Of a stretch of 64,000 nt of DNA, positions 4,217-56,011 are shown in pieces. The position numbers and the translations under genes were made by a program. A model generated the notes under the pieces. That model saw nothing but the letters and a program-made list of their open reading frames with translations. It searched no databases and was not told the origin of the DNA. The DNA lies in the NCBI GenBank assembly GCA_964515375.1, contig CAZERF010000002.1:93164-157163 (forward strand). The letters are read 5' to 3'. Within the stretch, counting starts at the first letter, position 1; every line of letters begins with the position of its first letter. The stretch is from an uncultured Candidatus Saccharibacteria bacterium (GTDB lineage Bacteria > Patescibacteriota > Minisyncoccia > Phycocordibacterales > UBA6899).

Positions 4217-4306
4217 GGAGGAGTGGCCGAGTGGTTTAAGGCAACGGACTTGAAATCCGTCGTTCGCGAAAGTGAACCGTGAGTTCGAATCTCACCTCCT
4301 CCGCCA
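4217..4306 (+). tRNA. tRNA-Ser (anticodon TGA)
   Basis: Acceptor GGAGGAG/CTCCTCC; anticodon stem ACGGA/TCCGT with loop CTTGAAA; long variable arm; T-arm GTGAG-TTCGAAT-CTCAC; CCA is encoded. Confidence 0.85.
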
Positions 4307-4441
4307 GTTGGGAAAATGCAAATTTGGAGAAGACGGCTCGCGGCGCGAGACGCGCCGCTCGCACAGAATTTGAAAGGGCTTTTTTGGCGAAAAGGAAAAG
4401 GATTTATCAAGAAGGGCAAAAGAAATTTTTTCATAAATGCG

Positions 4442-5599
4442 ATGCGAGTTACTAAAAAGAAATTTTTCATAAGTTTAGGAATTTTATTCCTACTTCTTTT
4501 AATCATTGGTTCTAAAGATAAATCGGAAAAATCGGTAATTCCAGAAAACACTGGAAATACTACCAAGGTTGAAGCAACAGCCAGGAAATTTTACATGGGT
4601 TTTACACCGTGGCCACCAGATTTTTCTGATCAAGCAGTTAAAGGTTCGTATAAATTTATTGATGATCATGCTGATATTATTGCTCATCATCTAGACAATG
4701 GTATACCTTGGCAAGAAAGTCTTGAAGGAAAAGAATTTTCTAAACATCTTCGTGACCAATGGGCGCTAAGAAAATCCAATACCACAAATGATCATAAGGT
4801 TTATCTTGCTATTACTCCCATTAATACCGATAGGAATGGTTTAGCTCCATACTGGGGAGAAACTGATAATATTCCCTTATCTGAACCTTGGAAATCATAT
4901 GGCTTCAATGATGAAAGAGTCAAAAAAGCTTATCTTAACTATGCAATTCGAGCGATAGATTATTTCAAACCGGACTATATTGCCACTGGTATCGAATCGA
5001 ACATTTTAATTTCCAAGGCTCTGAGTAAATGGAATGATTATTTGGAATTAAATGAATATATCTACAAAGAACTAAAGAAAAAATATCCTAAACTATTAAT
5101 TTTTAATACGATCCAATACGAACATTTAAGAGCAATCGAGAATGATGCAAAACCAAACAGACATTTACAAATTCCTGAAGTAAAAAAGTTAATGCAGAAT
5201 AGCGATCTATTTGCTATAAGCACTTATCACTTTGGAACCGCTCATAATCCAGCAAATTCAAATTACTTTGGGCCTGCTCTATCATTCGGCAAACCTTTAG
5301 CTGTAGGAGAAATGGGTGCGATGTCGAAAGATATAACTATCTTTGGCAACAAAATTCATGCTAACGAGCAAGACCAATCAGAATTTATTAATTTCATATT
5401 AAGTGAAGCTAATAAAAATAATTTTCTTTTCGTCATAAATTTCGTGAATATTGATTATGATAAATTGCTCGGAAAACTTCCAAACGAAGTCAAGGAAGTT
5501 GCAAAAGCTTGGGTTAATACCGGATTAGTCCGCTCGGACTATTCTCCTAAACCAGCTCTTTCGGTGTGGGACGCCTATTATCATCTTCCACGTCGTTAA
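4442..5599 (+). CDS. Secreted hypothetical protein, possibly a TIM-barrel glycoside-hydrolase-like enzyme. The gene is AT-rich.
   Basis: Signal peptide MRVTKKKFFISLGILFLLLLIIGS. GC content is far below that of the flanks. Lies immediately downstream of tRNA-Ser. The start was moved to the ATG at 4442. Confidence 0.55.
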   Translation: MRVTKKKFFISLGILFLLLLIIGSKDKSEKSVIPENTGNTTKVEATARKFYMGFTPWPPDFSDQAVKGSYKFIDDHADIIAHHLDNGIPWQESLEGKEFSKHLRDQWALRKSNTTNDHKVYLAITPINTDRNGLAPYWGETDNIPLSEPWKSYGFNDERVKKAYLNYAIRAIDYFKPDYIATGIESNILISKALSKWNDYLELNEYIYKELKKKYPKLLIFNTIQYEHLRAIENDAKPNRHLQIPEVKKLMQNSDLFAISTYHFGTAHNPANSNYFGPALSFGKPLAVGEMGAMSKDITIFGNKIHANEQDQSEFINFILSEANKNNFLFVINFVNIDYDKLLGKLPNEVKEVAKAWVNTGLVRSDYSPKPALSVWDAYYHLPRR

Positions 5600-5902
5600 G
5601 AGCGAGAATTTGCCATTTTTCGGTTGCACGACATCTTACTCCGGAACTTTTCCGTGACGCGTGGGATCATCTCTCGAACCTCCCGACTCCGGTGTTTCAT
5701 TCAACGTTTGATAACCTCACGTTGTGTGTCCTTGAGCATGAAGTGTGGAGACCAAAGCGCGCGTTTGTGTTACCTTCGTAGCGTCCGAGGAGTATCACGG
5801 AGTTACTCGAGATACCTTCACGTTATGTCGTAATTGTGGTACGGTGCATATGATGCGTGCATGTTTTGAGAACACACGGCGTTGTCGTAATTTCCCATTT
5901 TC

Positions 5903-8116
5903 ATGAAACGACGCGCCATTATATTCTCACTCCTCGTTGTTACACTCTTTGGAGGGATTTTTTATGTACAGACATTTTCTCGCGTCGAGCATGTGCGCCT
6001 GAATTTCTTTGCCGACCTATCGTATCGTTCGGATATCCTCTCGCAACAGATCATCGAGAAGATATCAGAAAAGGAGTCGGATATTTCCTTCATCGGACAG
6101 ATTCTCGAAAAGATCGCGCAATATGCCAAGGTCATTGATATTGCGTATTACGATCGCACGGGAGCACTTGCTGCGTACAAGAAAAACCCCCTTTTTGAAG
6201 GAACTGGTCATGTTCCTTCCGTCGAAGAGAACATGCTTCAGCAAGAGACCCTCCCCGTTGCGGAATTCGCAAAGGGGTATGCGCGATTTCTGTATCCTGT
6301 TTCGAATGAACGCGGTGAGATTTTTGGTTACCTGTTATTCACACAAGATACTACCTATATTGATGAGCACATTCGTGGTACGTGGCGTGACCGAAGTATC
6401 ATTTTCTTCTCACTTATCATCGGTCTCTTCGCCTTCGCCTACTTTCTTTTTTATGTTTATGTTATGCGATCGTCCTCGGTGGCGGTCGCTTTGCTTCGGG
6501 ATGTGAGAAAGAGTGTTGATCATTCCGGAGAGATTCCTCGAAATGTTTTCCCTTTTTCGCCTGAATTGAATAGTGAGATCGCGCTTACGGTGCAGAGTTT
6601 CTTGCGTGCGCGACAAGGCGCGCGAGAAGAAGCGGATCTGCGTTACAAGATCATTGACTCTCCTTGGACATTCTCGCGTTTGCAGCGCTTTTTTGCGAAC
6701 CGTATGCCAGAACGCAAATTGATCAATGTGTCGAATCGTCAACCTTATGTCCACACCGAGTCGGGAGGAAAGACTGTTGTCGTGCAGCCTGCGCACGGAC
6801 TCATTGCGTCGTTGGATGAGATGATGAAAGCCTGTGGTGGAACGTGGATCGCGCATGGTGCGGGGAGTAGGGATAAAGATGCGGTTGATCATGATGACAA
6901 GATCGCCGTCCCACCCGACGAGCCAAAATATTTTTTGAAGCGTGTCTGGCTTTCTGAAGATGAAGTGCGGGGTCATTATGTCGGTTTCTCAAACGAGGCG
7001 CTGTATCCTCTTTGTCTTATGACACACAACAGACCGATCTTTCGAACAGACGATTGGAATGCGTATAAGGCGGTCAATGAAAAGTTCGCGTCTGCTGTAA
7101 TTGCAGAGATCGCTGACGAGCGGGACCCGATCATTTTTATCCATGATCTCCATTTTGCTCTTTTGCCGCAGCTCATCAAGAAAGAACGTCCCGATGCGGG
7201 AGTGATTCTTTTTTGGCATCATCCGTGGCCGTCAGCGGAGCAGTTTAGCATCCTTCCTTGGAAGAAGGAGGTTTTGACCGGACTCTTGTCCGCGGACGTG
7301 CTTTGTTTCCATGTGCATCATTTTTGCAACAACTTCACCGAAACGGTCAAGAAGGAGCTTGAGGCAAAGATCGATACTGAGAATTCCGCAGTTTCTCTTG
7401 ATGGGAAAGAAACACTGGTGAAGCATTTTCCCATTTCGATTCCCTTCACGAATCTTCATTCTGATACACCACACGATCAGAAGAGAGTTGACCGTATTGC
7501 GGGGGAAGATCTAGGTGGCCTCCGCGTTATACTCGGTGTTGATCGAATGGATTACACAAAGGGGTTGATCGAACGTCTGAAGGGTGTCGAGCTTTTCTAC
7601 GAAACGTATCCTGAGTTCAAGAAGACCTCGGTATTTGTGCAGGTGGCGGCGCCAAGCAGAGAAGCTGTTTTGAAATATCGACAATACGCGGAACAGGTGC
7701 TTGCGGAAGTTGATCGCATTAACAAGAAGCTCCAGACCAACACGTGGAAACCAATCATCTTTTTGCACAAACAGGTTCCGCAACGTGACCTTGTTCACCT
7801 CTATCGCAAGGCCGAGATCTGTCTCGTGACCTCGCTTCATGATGGGATGAATCTTGTTGCAAAGGAATATGTTGCGCAGCATACCGATGAAGGAGTGCTC
7901 ATTTTGAGTGAGTTCACCGGAGCTGCTCGTGAGTTACATACGGCCATCAAGATCAATCCCTATTCGACATCTGACATTGTCGAGGCAATCCATTCAGCGT
8001 TTTTGATGGAAGGACATGAACGAAGGACACGATTGGATGCAATGCGTAGCAAGATCGCGCAGTATAATGTTTTTCGTTGGGCGGCGGATATCTTTGATGC
8101 GTTCTTAAATAAATAA
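5903..8116 (+). CDS. otsA: Alpha,alpha-trehalose-phosphate synthase (GT20, OtsA-like) fused to an N-terminal TM - periplasmic domain - TM - linker sensor-like module
   Basis: C-terminal ~480 aa carries GT20 motifs: VSNRQP, WIAHGAG, IIFIHDLHFALLP, ILFWHHPWPS, ILGVDRMDYTKGL, FVQVAAPSR, HDGMNLVAKEY, LILSEFTGAA, INPYS. N-terminal ~250 aa has TM helices at about residues 5-22 and 167-187, with a predicted periplasmic domain between them. Confidence 0.85.
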   Translation: MKRRAIIFSLLVVTLFGGIFYVQTFSRVEHVRLNFFADLSYRSDILSQQIIEKISEKESDISFIGQILEKIAQYAKVIDIAYYDRTGALAAYKKNPLFEGTGHVPSVEENMLQQETLPVAEFAKGYARFLYPVSNERGEIFGYLLFTQDTTYIDEHIRGTWRDRSIIFFSLIIGLFAFAYFLFYVYVMRSSSVAVALLRDVRKSVDHSGEIPRNVFPFSPELNSEIALTVQSFLRARQGAREEADLRYKIIDSPWTFSRLQRFFANRMPERKLINVSNRQPYVHTESGGKTVVVQPAHGLIASLDEMMKACGGTWIAHGAGSRDKDAVDHDDKIAVPPDEPKYFLKRVWLSEDEVRGHYVGFSNEALYPLCLMTHNRPIFRTDDWNAYKAVNEKFASAVIAEIADERDPIIFIHDLHFALLPQLIKKERPDAGVILFWHHPWPSAEQFSILPWKKEVLTGLLSADVLCFHVHHFCNNFTETVKKELEAKIDTENSAVSLDGKETLVKHFPISIPFTNLHSDTPHDQKRVDRIAGEDLGGLRVILGVDRMDYTKGLIERLKGVELFYETYPEFKKTSVFVQVAAPSREAVLKYRQYAEQVLAEVDRINKKLQTNTWKPIIFLHKQVPQRDLVHLYRKAEICLVTSLHDGMNLVAKEYVAQHTDEGVLILSEFTGAARELHTAIKINPYSTSDIVEAIHSAFLMEGHERRTRLDAMRSKIAQYNVFRWAADIFDAFLNK

Positions 8117-8117
8117 C

Positions 8118-9278
8118 ATGAAGATCTTTACGAATGCGCAAGATAAGGCGGTTGGAGGAATCGTAAGAATGATGCATACGTTCGTTTCGGGGGCACTGCG
8201 TTCCGATCCGTCACTTTCTTTTCACTTTGCGATCGTTTCAAGCAGTGCAGAGCTTCACGGAAAAGACGAGCAACGCTCTTTTGGTGTGCATGAGGGGTTT
8301 CCCGCCGATCGGATGATCTTGCCTAGTACTTATTATACAGAGGTTGTCACGCCCGCGAGTTCTCTCTTCGAGCTTTCCGACGGGATTGCGGGGTTGATCG
8401 ATTTCTATGCTGAAAGCATCCGCCGTGCGCGCCCTGACGTAGTGTTGATAAACGGAACATATTATCGACCGTGGGCACTGCTTCAGGCTGCACGGCGCAC
8501 GGCCACGCCTTATGTCGTCTTTGTGCATGGATCGGTCGTTGAGGAAGCAAAGGGTTCGCCCGAACCCTTGCTTAAACTTGTGAGCGCAATGGAGCGAGAT
8601 TTCTTCGATCCGTCCGCATCGTACATTTTTCCTTCACGAGTTGCTCTTGAGCGAACCTCGTTCGGAGAACAGGCTGACCAAGGGAGGTTCCATGTCATTA
8701 GTAATGCATTGGATGAGACATTTTTCATCTCGGGACATTCTCCGGTCGGAGACCCGATCCGTGTCGGCTTCGTGTTGCGCTGGGAAGAGGTAAAGAACAC
8801 GAAGTTCATTCTTGATTTTATTGATCATAATGAGCGCGCATCTCACTCGTACTCCGTTGTTGTGGTGTCGGATATTGATGCGTCTCGTGCTGATCAGTAT
8901 CGACGCTCTCATGCATTTTTTGCCCCGCCAAAGACAAAAGAGGAAATGGTGCGTTTTTATAAAGAAATCGATATCATCGTGAACCCTTCTTATTTTGAGA
9001 CGTTCGGATATGTGCCCGCTGAAGCGGTTGCAACAGGAACTCCGGCACTTGTCTCTCTTCGTCAGGGTATTTCAGAAGTGTTTCTGCGCTCTGGCTTGGA
9101 GCGTTTGGTTGTCGATCTTGACGAAGTGGCGCAAGTTTACGAGATCATCCCGCGCCTTGCGCGCGAGAGTGTGACTCCCGCGGAGATCGATCGGTTGCAT
9201 GCCGCACTCGACCCGCTCCACATCTCACAAGCGATCATTATGGTCTTGAAAGACGCATGCACAGAGTGTCAAGCATGA
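8118..9278 (+). CDS. Glycosyltransferase family 4 (GT-B fold)
   Basis: NPSYFETFGYVPAEAVATGTPALVS is the GT4 E-x7-E region. Start lies 2 nt after the otsA stop, indicating an operon. Confidence 0.7.
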   Translation: MKIFTNAQDKAVGGIVRMMHTFVSGALRSDPSLSFHFAIVSSSAELHGKDEQRSFGVHEGFPADRMILPSTYYTEVVTPASSLFELSDGIAGLIDFYAESIRRARPDVVLINGTYYRPWALLQAARRTATPYVVFVHGSVVEEAKGSPEPLLKLVSAMERDFFDPSASYIFPSRVALERTSFGEQADQGRFHVISNALDETFFISGHSPVGDPIRVGFVLRWEEVKNTKFILDFIDHNERASHSYSVVVVSDIDASRADQYRRSHAFFAPPKTKEEMVRFYKEIDIIVNPSYFETFGYVPAEAVATGTPALVSLRQGISEVFLRSGLERLVVDLDEVAQVYEIIPRLARESVTPAEIDRLHAALDPLHISQAIIMVLKDACTECQA

Positions 9279-9316
9279 CCTCTTCGTGTTAGTATGATGG
9301 ATACTTAAATTATTTT

Positions 9317-10159
9317 ATGCCCCCAAAATACCCTTCTCCTCGTCGCACGCTTCTTATTAGGATCATCGCTTTCGCGGGTTTTGTTTGGATCATCTTTTCT
9401 TTGTTGCGTGCGGAGGGTATTCTTCCTCCTTCCGACGGAGGGGTGGTCGCGTGTCCTGCGGATGTGATGATCTGCCCTGACGGTTCGGGAGTCGGACGTG
9501 TGGCTCCGTCGTGTGCGTTCGCGCCATGTCCCGCGGGAAGCAATGCGATCACTCCATTCAAAAACCCGCTCATTGCGAACGCGATCGAGCAATATCTCCT
9601 CACGCAAATTCGTTTCAGTTGGGAGACGCGTCCTGATAGTTATCGACAATGTGCCGTTTTCCCGCTTGATCATACTGAAGCACTGTTCCCGATCTCGGTC
9701 TGGGTGGTGTGCGGCGAATATGTGTTCGAGGGAGACACTGCACGTATGGTATCCGGCTCTTCCGGTCCGGCACTTGTCGCGTATCCGAACGAGCTTTCCT
9801 TTTATGACCCCGCGCGTTTTACTCACGAAGCCCCGCGAGACGGAGCATTCTACGACGAGGATATTGCGCGTATCTTTTCTCCTGTGGCACAAGAGGGAAT
9901 CGTGACGCTTGACCGCGCGTCCGTCACCGCGACGGCAGGGCTACGAGCGGAAGAAGCGTTCCGTGCGTGGAATGCGGTCGTTGTTGCGATCAAAAATTGC
10001 GAGGTTGAATCTGTGATGCAAGCGCATAGCAGGGAAGTGTCGGCGAGGCTCAAGGACGGGAGCACTCTTCGTGCGATCGAGCCTCGTATTGACGACATCA
10101 TAGACGTTGCGGATGTTGCTTCCGCTTCGTGCGGAAAGATCAGAATGGCGACGGAGTGA
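9317..10159 (+). CDS. Hypothetical membrane-anchored Cys-rich extracytoplasmic protein
   Basis: 280-aa ORF with N-terminal TM helix (IIAFAGFVWIIFSLL) followed by multiple Cys residues. Confidence 0.5.
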   Translation: MPPKYPSPRRTLLIRIIAFAGFVWIIFSLLRAEGILPPSDGGVVACPADVMICPDGSGVGRVAPSCAFAPCPAGSNAITPFKNPLIANAIEQYLLTQIRFSWETRPDSYRQCAVFPLDHTEALFPISVWVVCGEYVFEGDTARMVSGSSGPALVAYPNELSFYDPARFTHEAPRDGAFYDEDIARIFSPVAQEGIVTLDRASVTATAGLRAEEAFRAWNAVVVAIKNCEVESVMQAHSREVSARLKDGSTLRAIEPRIDDIIDVADVASASCGKIRMATE

Positions 10160-12142: not shown

Positions 12143-12556
12143 ATGATCACTGTTGATGAATTCCATGCTGTTGAAATGAAGGTCGGGACGATCCTTGTCG
12201 CCGAATATATCGAAGGTGCGGACAAGCTCCTTCGTCTTGAGGTGGACTTTGGTCCGAAGCCGCGTGCGGTCGACGTTGCTCAAGAACGTGTTGATCCCAC
12301 CGAAGAGACCACCCCTTCTGCTCAAGCGGACAATATTTCCGAAGAGCGTGATATTCGCCAGATCCTCTCGGGGATCCGCGCGTACTACGAACCCGTGGAC
12401 CTGATCGGCAAGCAATGCCCCTTTGTGGTGAACCTCGCTCCGCGAACGATGCGCGGACTCGAGAGTCACGGTATGATTCTTGCGGTTGGTGTCGGCCCCG
12501 AAGCAGTCCTCCTCCACCCCGACAAACCTGTCCCCCCGGGAAGCGCGTTGCGCTGA
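12143..12556 (+). CDS. tRNA-binding domain protein (CsaA/Trbp111/EMAP-like OB fold)
   Basis: VGTILVAEYIEGADKLLRLEVDFG...QILSGIRAYYEPVDLIGKQCPFVVNLAPRTMRGLESHGMIL. Carries a ~25-aa acidic insertion. Confidence 0.7.
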   Translation: MITVDEFHAVEMKVGTILVAEYIEGADKLLRLEVDFGPKPRAVDVAQERVDPTEETTPSAQADNISEERDIRQILSGIRAYYEPVDLIGKQCPFVVNLAPRTMRGLESHGMILAVGVGPEAVLLHPDKPVPPGSALR

Positions 12557-12632
12557 CTCTTTTTGTGATAGGTCTCGTGTTCTGTGCAGAACAGAGGTGC
12601 GCGTTCGGTGTTTTTTGCGTATACTAGAGGTG

Positions 12633-13700
12633 ATGTCCTTGTTTTCCGCACCGAAATTCCTTGCGATGCCCGCAATCGGGCTTGATATCTCGATGGACGC
12701 GATCCGCTTCATTGAGCTTGCCCACAAGGGTGACAAACTTATCGTCTCACGTTTTGCGGGGCGACAATTCCCCATGGGGACAGTCGCGGAAGGACGCTCG
12801 AGCGACAAGAAGAAACTCCAAGACGTGATCGGCTCCTTGGCCCACGAATTCAAACTTGGCTTTGCAAATGTCTCACTTCCTGAAGAGCAGGCTTATCTTG
12901 CGAATATGCAGGTCCCTCGTGTGTCCGGAGGAGAGCTTCGTGACGCGATCGAGCTTCACCTTGAGGAATATGTCCCCATCTCCGGACCCGATGCGATATT
13001 TGATTATGTGATCGTTGGAGACGGAGGTCGACGCAAGGATACGATCGATGTGGTCGTGTCGGTGATGCCACGCGCGATCATCGATGAGTATCTCGAGATC
13101 TTTCACGGAACCGGCGTAACCCCCAAGGCGTTCGAACTCGAATCACAAGCGATGGCGCGTTCGATCATTCCGCGTGGAGACAACGGTACGTTCCTTGTGG
13201 TCGATATTGGCAAGATGGTCACGGATATCTTTGTTGCCGCGCACGGGGTGGTGCAATTCTCCGCGTCGCTTGATGTGGGAGGACACAACTTCACTCAAGC
13301 GATCGCCAAAGCACTCGGGGTCACGTATGAAGAAGCAGAAGCACTCAAGGGAAAGCACGGACTGGTCGGGGGAGGGAAGGATGCGGATCTGCGTGCGGTG
13401 CTTGCTCCCGCCGTATCTGATTTTCGCACGCGTATCATGCAACACTATATGTACTGGCAAACACATCACGGCGAGAAGGTCGGAGGCAACATCGAGGCGG
13501 TTTACCTTACGGGTGGTGGCGCAAATCTCAAAGGCATCGCGGAATTCCTCGCGACGGGAGTGGACGTGCAGGTCAAGATCGCGAACCCGTGGGTGAACGT
13601 ATGCTCCTTCGAGGAATACATTCCTCCGCTTCCCATGCGACAGTCGCACGGATTTTCCGCGGCGATCGGACTTGCCTTGCGGGACTCCTTTTCCGCATAA
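12633..13700 (+). CDS. pilM: Type IV pilus assembly protein PilM (actin-like ATPase)
   Basis: MSLFSAP...AIGLDISMDAIRFIEL... Actin-fold ATPase with Gly-rich loops, located immediately upstream of pilN/pilO. The start was moved to the ATG at 12633, which has an agagg RBS. Confidence 0.75.
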   Translation: MSLFSAPKFLAMPAIGLDISMDAIRFIELAHKGDKLIVSRFAGRQFPMGTVAEGRSSDKKKLQDVIGSLAHEFKLGFANVSLPEEQAYLANMQVPRVSGGELRDAIELHLEEYVPISGPDAIFDYVIVGDGGRRKDTIDVVVSVMPRAIIDEYLEIFHGTGVTPKAFELESQAMARSIIPRGDNGTFLVVDIGKMVTDIFVAAHGVVQFSASLDVGGHNFTQAIAKALGVTYEEAEALKGKHGLVGGGKDADLRAVLAPAVSDFRTRIMQHYMYWQTHHGEKVGGNIEAVYLTGGGANLKGIAEFLATGVDVQVKIANPWVNVCSFEEYIPPLPMRQSHGFSAAIGLALRDSFSA

Positions 13701-54893: not shown

Positions 54894-55853
54894 TTAGAGC
54901 GTCTCGCGGGTGAGAAGGAGAATGAGGTAGAGTACATAGAGCGCGACCATGATCCCTCCTTGCCAGCGTTCGAGTTCAAAGCGTTTGCCGATGAACATGA
55001 TCGCGAAGAGAAGCGCCCCGGAGAGAAGGAGCATTCCTTCGTCCAAGAAGGATACCGTTCCGATGGGGATCGGTGCGATCAGTGCGGAGATTCCGAGCAC
55101 AAAGAAGACGTTGAATATATTCGATCCAATGATATTGCCGACCGCAATGTTGGCATTGCCACGATACGCTGCGACGCTTGAGGTGATGAGTTCGGGGAGC
55201 GACGTACCGATCGCGACAATAGTGAGACCAATGACGGTCTCGGAAAGTCCGAAGAGTTGCGCGACGTCAACTGCGCCACTGACAACAAGTTTGCCTCCGA
55301 GCACAAGCCCGACAAGTCCAAGGATGATCTCGATGATCGTTCTATTGAGCGGAAGTGTGTCGGAGAGCTCTCCTTCGGGAAATCCTGTTGTTTTGATCAT
55401 GGAAAAAACATACGAAAGAAAGATCGCAAAGAAGCAGAGCAGAACGATTCCGTCGACGCGATCGAGCATCGAGAATTCGTGACCGGAAAGTAGACGATCG
55501 CTCACCATTGCACTGAGCACTACACCAGCAAGAAATCCCATGGGAATCTCTTTCCAGACTGTTTGATGGGTGACCATGAGTGGTCGTATCATTGCGGAGA
55601 TTCCAAGGATGAGAAAGATGTTTGCGATATTCGATCCGACGATGTTGCCGAGGACGATCCCGGTATTGCCGGAGAATGAACCAAACACATTGACGGTGAG
55701 TTCCGGAAGAGAGGTTCCAAAGGCAACGACCGTGAGTCCGATCGCCATGTCGGAGATCTTGAGGCGTTTTCCAAGTGATGTCGCGCCGCGAATGAGCTTG
55801 TCCGCACCTTGAATGAGGAGGTAGAAACCTCCGATAATGAAAATGAATGGCAT
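54894..55853 (-). CDS. Ca2+/cation antiporter (CaCA family, YrbG-like)
   Basis: Two internal repeats, each with the GTSLPEL alpha-repeat motif. 319 aa and about 10 TM helices. Confidence 0.85.
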   Translation of the reverse strand: MPFIFIIGGFYLLIQGADKLIRGATSLGKRLKISDMAIGLTVVAFGTSLPELTVNVFGSFSGNTGIVLGNIVGSNIANIFLILGISAMIRPLMVTHQTVWKEIPMGFLAGVVLSAMVSDRLLSGHEFSMLDRVDGIVLLCFFAIFLSYVFSMIKTTGFPEGELSDTLPLNRTIIEIILGLVGLVLGGKLVVSGAVDVAQLFGLSETVIGLTIVAIGTSLPELITSSVAAYRGNANIAVGNIIGSNIFNVFFVLGISALIAPIPIGTVSFLDEGMLLLSGALLFAIMFIGKRFELERWQGGIMVALYVLYLILLLTRETL

Positions 55854-56011
55854 ACAGGGTTGAGTGTAGCATTTTTTACCCCTACTGCACGAGGTGTTTG
55901 AACAGGTCGGGAAGTGATGGACAAATATTCTATTTTGATGTATAATGTATATATAGATCGTTCTTCGTGTTTTTTACTCCTCCTCTTTGTATTTTTAATA
56001 ATTTCACTACC

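Follow-up and report, generated by a model that had tools for sequence, protein, structure and literature searches.

A family of trehalose-6-phosphate synthase-like proteins of Patescibacteria that carry a predicted transmembrane Cache-HAMP module

Why should a trehalose-6-phosphate (T6P) synthase be attached to what looks like the membrane-spanning half of a receptor? The question is raised by a gene located at positions 5903..8116 (+ strand) of a 64,000-nucleotide stretch of DNA, hereafter called the window, from an uncultured Candidatus Saccharibacteria bacterium (contig CAZERF010000002.1 of assembly GCA_964515375.1, positions 93,164 to 157,163). An initial annotation, made from the sequence alone, had described the product as an OtsA enzyme of glycosyltransferase family GT20, preceded by two transmembrane (TM) helices that bracket an ectodomain and by a linker, and encoded in an operon with a glycosyltransferase of family GT4. 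The analyses reported here lead us to consider it probable that this protein, which we call sensor-OtsA, combines in one chain a transmembrane receptor and its output, the synthesis of T6P.

The gene is a single open frame encoding 737 amino acids (aa), and the proposed anatomy (TM helix, ectodomain, TM helix, linker and GT20 domain) is found within this one uninterrupted open reading frame (ORF). We recognise in its product, from the N- to the C-terminus, TM1, a predicted Cache domain, TM2, a probable HAMP domain, a putatively rigid connector and the GT20 domain, a layout that is common to more than 115 full-length homologs. The beginning of the protein (MKRRAIIFSLL) resembles that of its homologs (MKQRAITLSLL and similar), and the start codon is credible because the relatives open with the same sequence. 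The layout bracketed by two TM helices thus stands as it was first described, with some changes in size, the ectodomain being of ~138 aa rather than ~145 aa and the linker of ~80 aa rather than ~60 aa.

The survey for similar N-terminal fusions revealed that sensor-OtsA belongs to a large and conserved family. A protein search retrieved more than 115 relatives of full length, with ~735-745 aa, a coverage of 96-100% and identities of 40-71%, and the 120 best matches of the window protein in the database are without exception of the fused type. A scan with a motif of the N-terminal module, performed on one genome per species, detected relatives in at least 136 species genomes. A search of 1.84 billion cluster representatives with a hidden Markov model (HMM) of the N-terminal profile returned 745 clusters at 50% identity (E ≤ 1e-10); the top 150 matches are mostly fragments, and this search informs on the size of the family only. 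The named carriers are Patescibacteria, i.e., members of the Candidate Phyla Radiation (CPR), and include Paceibacterota, Minisyncoccia, Taylor-, Nomura- and Doudnabacteria; the distribution is essentially all Patescibacteria. In databases, the relatives are simply named ‘trehalose-6-phosphate synthase’, a few of them having a precomputed dCache_1 match.

We also analysed 83 loci that encode members of the family. The N-terminal module and the GT20 domain are located in one ORF wherever the contig spans the whole gene, except at locus L015 (7968-10057), where they are carried by two overlapping ORFs (7968-9017 and 8831-10057); this split reflects a frameshift, a pseudogene or a faulty assembly of the metagenome-assembled genome (MAG) concerned. 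A gene of the CPR type is also present in MAGs labelled Limnocylindrales, Gammaproteobacteria (including a 1.6-Mb ‘chromosome’, OZ246394.1) and Planktophila (loci L081, L075, L013, L030 and L037). These loci have a GC content of 0.35-0.45 and encode proteins that are 54-81% identical to members of the same CPR-type family, of which only some are named; MAGs that were mislabelled or misbinned are likelier than a spread of the gene to other phyla. In one relative (P0125, 913 aa), the sensor module begins at residue 175, so that this protein has an extra N-terminal extension.

The C-terminal part of sensor-OtsA (aa 271-737; 6713..8113, + strand) corresponds to a T6P synthase (TPS) domain of family GT20, as indicated by Pfam, by matches in the PDB and by conserved residues. 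The Pfam model PF00982 aligns with aa 272-733 over its positions 2-470 of 473, with a score of 379.6 bits against a gathering score of 32.5 (E 3e-113), and GT20 is the sole cytoplasmic catalytic domain that Pfam recognises in the protein. The closest solved relatives are all TPS, namely Tps1 of C. albicans, A. fumigatus and M. oryzae and mycobacterial OtsA (E ~1e-72), and E. coli OtsA is also among the PDB matches (E 1e-48).

Functional residues were mapped by alignment to the OtsA of E. coli MG1655, and their conservation was determined across 119 relatives. In the E. coli enzyme, the site for glucose-6-phosphate (G6P) comprises Arg9, Tyr76, Trp85 and Arg300, as well as Trp40, and the site for UDP-glucose comprises Gly22, Asp130, His154, Arg262, Asp361 and Glu369 (PMC1769515). 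Sensor-OtsA possesses the equivalents R279, Y359 and R586 on the G6P side and G299, D415, H439, R548, D647 and E655 on the UDP-glucose side, each of these nine substrate-binding residues being kept in at least 115 of the 119 relatives. The equivalent of E. coli Lys267, a residue that we take from OtsA structures to have a role in the enzyme, is conserved as well (K553). At least 117 of the 119 members have kept every catalytic residue, and the mapping confirms the intact GT20 motifs of the initial annotation. The exceptions are on the G6P side, where Trp85 is replaced by Y368, which keeps the aromatic character, and where the mapping of Trp40 is ambiguous (W315 does not vary in the family, and H318 stands in place of the second Trp). 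The domain therefore appears to retain the substrate-binding and catalytic residues of OtsA, and its predicted activity is the synthesis of T6P. The NCBIfam models that rank first are those of OtsA (405-462 bits), all of them below their equivalog cut-offs. We could rule out a glucosylglycerol-phosphate synthase, the GgpS model TIGR02398 scoring 288.5 bits against the 405-462 bits of the OtsA models and otsB being the usual neighbour.

The initial annotation had allowed that the hydrophobic segments of the N-terminal part might not be TM helices. Kyte-Doolittle analysis (19-aa windows >1.6) detects exactly two such segments in the window protein, at aa ~4-24 and ~164-188, and the same two-segment pattern is present in 116 of the 119 full-length homologs, in which the median start is residue 4 for TM1 and residue 167 for TM2. 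The charges on their flanks, with the MKRR start on one side and an average of 2.5 Lys and Arg in the 15 residues that follow TM2 of the homologs on the other, fit an orientation in which the N-terminus is inside, the loop outside and the C-terminal part inside. TM1 (5912..5974, + strand) follows the MKRR sequence, predicted to be cytoplasmic, has a conserved position and is helical in an AlphaFold2 (AF2) model of the monomer, which covers aa 1-272 (pLDDT 83.8). TM2 (6392..6466, + strand), also defined by hydropathy, lies inside helix 151-203 of the same model.

The region between the two helices (aa ~25-163; 5975..6391, + strand) is predicted to form a single extracytoplasmic Cache (PAS-like) domain. 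It fills the whole space between TM1 and TM2, and the occupation of the entire inter-TM region is a criterion for Cache domains (PMC4822843). In the AF2 model, a helix that runs out of TM1 (2-56) is followed by a second helix (61-72), five strands and a helix that merges into TM2. The comparison of a family profile of aa 1-272 with PDB sequences retrieved the ectodomains of the histidine kinase WalK (5is1, 4ywz and 7dud, E 4e-5 to 2e-4). Foldseek analyses of the model gave as best PDB match an integrative model of full-length WalK (9a5d_A, WalK-YycH; E 1e-8, TMq 0.67, 266 columns), and the next matches are all Cache/PDC sensors: WalK ectodomains (E 1e-4), KinD, PctD, CitA, DctB, Mlp24 and Tlp3 (E 1e-4 to 1e-2). 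At the level of Pfam, sub-threshold matches were recorded in a scan of 36 relatives, to SMP_2 (24/36), dCache_1 (16/36), Cache_WalK (9/36) and sCache_3_2 (7/36), with further weak matches to dCache_3, CHASE8, LapD_MoxY_N and ArlS_N; nearly all the recurrent ones are thus to the Cache clan or to other extracytoplasmic sensor domains. Both SMP_2 and the WalK ectodomain are recognised members of Cache (PMC4822843). The Cache-like fold suspected for residues ~25-165 is therefore what the weak Pfam matches, the profile match to WalK and Foldseek all point to, and on sequence and model the ectodomain is best described as a single Cache domain most similar to that of WalK. Mean identity in the family alignment is 23% for the ectodomain and 34% for the linker. 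The conserved residues of the ectodomain (R42, G142, Q148, Y152, I153 and W161) map to its first helix, its last strand and the helix that enters TM2, a pattern that can be read as a conserved transmission stalk combined with a diversified ligand specificity.

The linker opens directly after TM2 with a divergent HAMP domain that has a long connector (aa ~189-240; 6467..6622, + strand), an assignment that is probable and not certain. The amphipathic segments AS1 (189-203) and AS2 (from ~220, with the invariant E225) are separated by residues 204-219, and the AF2 model contains a helix (189-203), a loop (204-219) and a helix (220-252) at these positions. The linker consensus, RPxxxLxxSxxxxRxG ... 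PLxxEIxKxxxSLxxAR, is similar to the pattern of HAMP domains, AS1 opening with a Pro and closing with a Gly, and AS2 opening with a Glu. When the linker profile was aligned by hhalign with seven E. coli HAMP domains (Tap, Tar, Tsr, EnvZ, CpxA, PhoQ and NarX, with boundaries from Pfam), the probability was 87.4% (P 3.7e-6, score 30.6) and the alignment was in register on these Pro, Gly and Glu residues; the scores of the controls did not exceed 13.8 for 12 column-shuffled versions and 8.0 for the reversed alignment. The HAMP domain for which residues ~190-250 were to be searched is thus probable at the start of the linker.

Between this putative HAMP domain and GT20, a conserved and presumably rigid connector (aa ~241-270; 6623..6712, + strand) carries the family motif ASEEARMRLEKLDSPWTAERLKEF; outside the catalytic domain, no other part of the protein is as conserved, with the invariant residues E243, A244, W255, T256, R259, L260 and F263. 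The spacing between the AS2 Glu (E225) and R279, in the SNR motif of the catalytic domain, is exactly 54 residues in 115 of 115 scorable relatives. By comparison, these proteins have 20-26 residues across the HAMP connector (from R202 to E225), and the length of their ectodomain varies by 9. A connector that is free of indels at 40% overall identity is expected if the coupling is helical and depends on register; a passive tether would not need it.

The genomic context of the family members agrees with the prediction made for the catalytic domain. Gene neighbours were clustered at the 83 loci, with three genes on each side in ~8-10 kb of DNA each side. The next gene downstream, on the same strand, is an otsB encoding a Trehalose_PPase of ~260 aa (PF02358, E 2e-41) in 41 of the 83 loci, which supports the TPS assignment for the family, and otsB is present within ~8-10 kb each side in 45. 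At 17 loci, otsB is followed in the same direction by a gene for an MGH1-like/GH63/trehalase-like hydrolase (in L030, 10239-11453; PF22422, E 3e-79), forming a synthase-phosphatase-hydrolase cluster. An IMPase-family phosphatase is encoded at position +1 in place of OtsB in 7-9 loci (in L062, 9944-10720; PF00459, E 8e-38) and may be a non-orthologous T6P phosphatase. The sensor-OtsA family is thus the OtsA of otsAB operons. Around a relative with 40% identity (L002, 10230-12295, and also L003) we found genes for a HAD phosphatase (S6PP/Hydrolase_3), a SemiSWEET protein (MtN3_slv) and a Na/Ca exchanger convergent with the sensor-OtsA gene; this arrangement hints at an export of the sugar product. 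A Na_Ca_ex gene is also located near the sensor-OtsA gene in L001 and L083, and the window contains one at 54897-55973 (- strand).

The statement of the initial annotation that no otsB is present nearby holds across the whole 64-kb window, in which an HMM built from 42 OtsB neighbours found nothing at E ≤ 10 and E. coli OtsB nothing at E ≤ 1e-3. Of the two outcomes proposed at the outset, the synthesis of a compatible solute is the better supported for the family, otsB being its usual partner, and that of a glycolipid precursor is less so.

We infer sensing and allosteric control from this architecture. Like other Cache-HAMP receptors, the protein would be dimeric, and TM2 would be shifted when the Cache domain meets a ligand or perceives a cue from the envelope or from osmotic conditions. 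The HAMP domain would turn this shift into a rotation or a tilt of the output helices, and the indel-free connector of 54 residues would relay the change to the N-lobe and the acceptor site of the GT-B enzyme, with the G6P-binding Arg R279 placed at the end of the connector. The conversion of nucleoside diphosphate (NDP)-glucose and G6P into T6P would thereby be switched on or off. In most relatives, OtsB would then free trehalose; in the subclade of the window, a phosphatase encoded elsewhere in the genome might act, or T6P or trehalose might be glycosylated further. By analogy with WalK, the candidate signals are osmolarity, the state of the envelope or a molecule derived from the host or from the cell wall. 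Of the one-component sensor-enzyme under direct environmental control that had first been imagined, the architecture is what the analyses show, and the control is what this architecture suggests.

A number of observations weigh against this interpretation. No Cache-clan Pfam model exceeds its gathering score in the window protein, SMP_2 giving an E value of 0.005. The Pfam HAMP model matches only 2 of the 36 members, and weakly (best E 0.004), and is below its gathering score in the window protein; a search of PDB sequences with the linker profile (hmmsearch) retrieved no HAMP domain and only spurious matches to Exo70 and PXR. The structure models are those of monomers, and a dimeric four-helix HAMP bundle is outside their scope. 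In our reading of the model, the conserved residues of the ectodomain are probably membrane-proximal, and no ligand-pocket motif was recognised in this domain. On the catalytic side, the OtsA model TIGR02400 scores 405.3 bits against a cut-off of 564.85; the domain is therefore classed as an OtsA-like GT20 whose specificity is a predicted one. Both the enzyme activity and its regulation are ones that we infer, and, with no otsB in the window, free trehalose is no more than a putative end product in this genome.

The absence of otsB directs attention to the gene that takes its place. It encodes a lineage-specific GT4 glycosyltransferase of 386 aa, here called GT4w (8118..9278, + strand). The sensor-OtsA gene stops with a TAA at 8114-8116, and the ATG of GT4w at 8118 follows after a single nucleotide (C at 8117); the GT4 gene is thus directly downstream, as first reported, with a spacer of 1 nt and not 2. 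The adjacency itself is confirmed in the window and does not extend to the family, the pairing with a GT4 being peculiar to the window's subclade. GT4w directly follows sensor-OtsA in the window and in L001, L004, L005 and L042/L085, with OtsA identities down to 44%. Only 27 homologs of GT4w are detectable, and many of them are on contigs equal in size to those of sensor-OtsA homologs (down to a 44%-identical OtsA), which we read as being the same contigs.

The GT4w protein scores above the Pfam cut-offs for Glycos_transf_1 and Glyco_trans_4_4, all of 21 homologs have its EX7E motif (E294/E302) and its R221/K226 pair, and its AF2 model displays a GT-B fold (pLDDT 91). Its neighbours by fold, as detected by Foldseek, are MshA (E 2e-16), the sucrose-phosphate synthase (SPS) 6kih (TMq 0.73), archaeal GlgA, BshA and GlgM. 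The initial annotation had proposed to test whether this partner is TreT-like or of a glucosylglycerol/sucrose-phosphate-synthase type, and neither TreT nor SPS specifically was supported: TreT is absent from the PDB sequence matches at E ≤ 0.01 and from the top 50 fold matches, and no NCBIfam equivalog comes near its cut-off. Sequence and model point to a divergent retaining GT4. Two positions of the GT20 domain also distinguish the 15 GT4-linked members, defined by adjacency or by equal-sized contigs. The Trp85 equivalent (aa 368, in the G6P site) is F/Y in all 15 and W in 86 of the 104 others, and the Phe339 equivalent (aa 625) is mostly V in the 15 and Y or H in the others. These changes could correspond to a shifted acceptor or nucleotide preference.

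These data make it possible, if rather doubtful, that in this clade the same receptor-enzyme leads to another final product, with GT4w using T6P or trehalose as its acceptor to give a larger phospho-oligosaccharide or glycoside in place of a compatible solute. The replacement of otsB by GT4w directly downstream in the window and in the loci named above favours this idea, as do the retention of EX7E and R221/K226, the clade-specific changes at the Trp85 (F/Y) and Phe339 (V) equivalents and the absence of OtsB, IMPase-type and MGH-like genes from the 64-kb window and from the DNA around the gene in its subclade. Furthermore, MshA, SPS, GlgM and BshA use small, often phosphorylated acceptors. However, only 5-10% of a genome is in view and an otsB could be located elsewhere, the neighbours of a GT-B fold do not define its acceptor, and the changes in the pocket are conservative. 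It is also conceivable, and quite improbable in our opinion, that in this otsB-less subclade T6P is an intracellular signal that answers an extracellular cue, or the committed precursor of a phospho-glycoside built by GT4w. T6P acts as a signal in plants.

Could the N-terminal module be only an anchor or scaffold, tethering and dimerising OtsA at the membrane, for instance in a glycoconjugate pathway that includes the GT4, without any signal? The poor conservation of the ectodomain (23% mean identity), in which no ligand motif is recognisable, the sub-threshold status of Cache and HAMP in Pfam and the presence of GT4 as next gene in the window's clade would all be compatible with such a role. 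On the other hand, one TM helix would suffice for it, whereas the arrangement of Cache, TM2 and HAMP persists across hundreds of species, in a family of at least 136 species genomes and 745 clusters. The invariant spacing of 54 residues between HAMP and the catalytic domain, with its invariant residues, fits a register-dependent transmission and not a tether, and the usual partner in the relatives is the soluble OtsB and not a membrane pathway. We therefore regard a simple anchor as unlikely.

Signalling from the inside to the outside would reverse the roles of the two halves, the GT20 domain sensing a cytoplasmic sugar phosphate or nucleotide sugar and relaying this information to a Cache domain that engages an external partner, as in LapD. 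WalK-type Cache domains do contact partner proteins, the top Foldseek match being precisely a WalK-YycH model, and non-catalytic TPS-like proteins have been described in plants and yeast (PMC1769515). We nevertheless consider this scheme very improbable, since catalytic residues that are intact in at least 117 of the 119 members and an otsB as next gene in about half of the loci indicate a working enzyme, and the clustered neighbours include no conserved extracytoplasmic partner gene. Finally, an artificial junction of two genes, whether through errors of sequencing or assembly or through a stop that was missed, including the separate upstream gene that the initial annotation had envisaged and of which the halves of L015 could be an example, has a negligible probability and is ruled out for the window ORF by the homolog survey. 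This ORF has no stop or frameshift, and the fusion recurs in over 115 independent proteins and at almost every one of the 83 loci, which derive from many samples and assemblers.

If sensor-OtsA is a receptor, the known system that it most resembles in its N-terminal module is WalK (YycG) of Firmicutes, which has TM1, sCache, TM2 and HAMP in the order and sizes predicted for sensor-OtsA and provides the best profile and fold matches, with an identity of only 13-15%. The two proteins differ in their output, which in WalK is a PAS-DHp-CA autokinase acting via a response regulator and in sensor-OtsA a predicted GT-B glycosyltransferase, with no kinase or regulator. In its catalytic half, sensor-OtsA shares the GT20 fold and the residues of OtsA/Tps1 (E. 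coli 1uqu, M. thermoresistibile 5jij and C. albicans 5hut) and, in most relatives, the otsA-otsB gene order. The initial annotation had opposed it to known OtsA enzymes, which are soluble and at most fused to OtsB, and prokaryotic TPS have indeed been described as single-domain proteins, sometimes fused to a T6P phosphatase (PMC1769515). Sensor-OtsA is unlike them in its transmembrane sensor module of ~270 aa and in its score below the NCBIfam cut-off for OtsA equivalogs.

Receptor-type nucleotide cyclases, such as the HAMP-adenylate cyclase Rv3645 of mycobacteria, obey the same logic, with a one-protein transmembrane receptor in which a HAMP or helical linker drives a cytoplasmic enzyme. These cyclases produce second messengers and are within the recognised set of Cache outputs, whereas the GT20 of sensor-OtsA is outside it. 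This set comprises histidine kinases, methyl-accepting chemotaxis proteins, GGDEF/EAL domains (DgcQ/YedQ, for instance, is a dCache-GGDEF protein), cyclases, PP2C, serine/threonine kinases and transcription factors, without GT20 (Table 1 of PMC4822843). Judging from its domains, sensor-OtsA would thus work like a transmembrane receptor but belongs to no recognised class of transducers. Among eukaryotic enzymes, AtTPS1, a class I TPS of plants, has an auto-inhibitory extension at its N-terminus that limits its activity; this extension is soluble, is devoid of Cache, TM and HAMP and has no sequence relationship to the sensor-OtsA module. Full-text literature searches for Cache-, HAMP- or transmembrane-TPS, or for trehalose synthesis in CPR, found no paper describing sensor-OtsA. 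The novelty is in the combination of Cache-HAMP with OtsA; both halves are of known kinds and the proteins are already public under a generic name.

The DNA surrounding the two genes offers few further clues. In the region 5400-9700, promoter-like sites are not more frequent than expected by chance. Terminator-like sites number 11, against 5.0 +/- 2.2 in shuffled sequences, and are scattered within ORFs, none of them being at the end of either gene. Upstream of sensor-OtsA, a tRNA gene (4217-4303, + strand) is immediately followed by a stretch of low GC content that extends to 5900 (0.34-0.39 versus ~0.50 for the window). This stretch may represent an acquired island bordering the sensor-OtsA gene on its upstream side. 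It contains an ORF of 427 aa (4316-5599, + strand), for which no match was found in Pfam, PHROG or PADLOC and in which a hydrophobic anchor comes after an internal Met (MRVTKKKFFISLGILFLLLLIIGS). Searches of PHROGs and PADLOC with the flanking ORFs that had no assignment and with GT4w gave no matches either. A PilM-like gene is located at 12480-13700, some kilobases beyond the otsA-GT4 pair, and is found at a similar short distance downstream of the pair in L085 (16539-22223), the locus of a 44%-identical relative, where it is followed by the remainder of a type IV pilus/T2SS-like cluster; this conserved synteny is probably unrelated to sensor-OtsA.

No modules for input and for transmission are more common in bacterial receptors than Cache and HAMP. 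Their documented outputs are signalling domains (PMC4822843); in sensor-OtsA, they would be coupled directly to an enzyme of central metabolism. If T6P were a signal or a precursor for the GT4, sensor-OtsA would be a case of HAMP driving a GT-B glycosyltransferase, which is not known as a class of output for HAMP. The family would also provide a tractable system to test such a control, HAMP-swap chimeras being established and T6P synthesis being easily assayed, and it exposes an annotation gap, hundreds of entries being named only ‘trehalose-6-phosphate synthase’. Patescibacteria live attached to hosts, with very small genomes that encode few regulators, and the fused form looks like their usual OtsA, the best 120 relatives of the window protein all being fused. 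If our interpretation is correct, these bacteria would exert a direct, transcription-free transmembrane control over the synthesis of a compatible solute.

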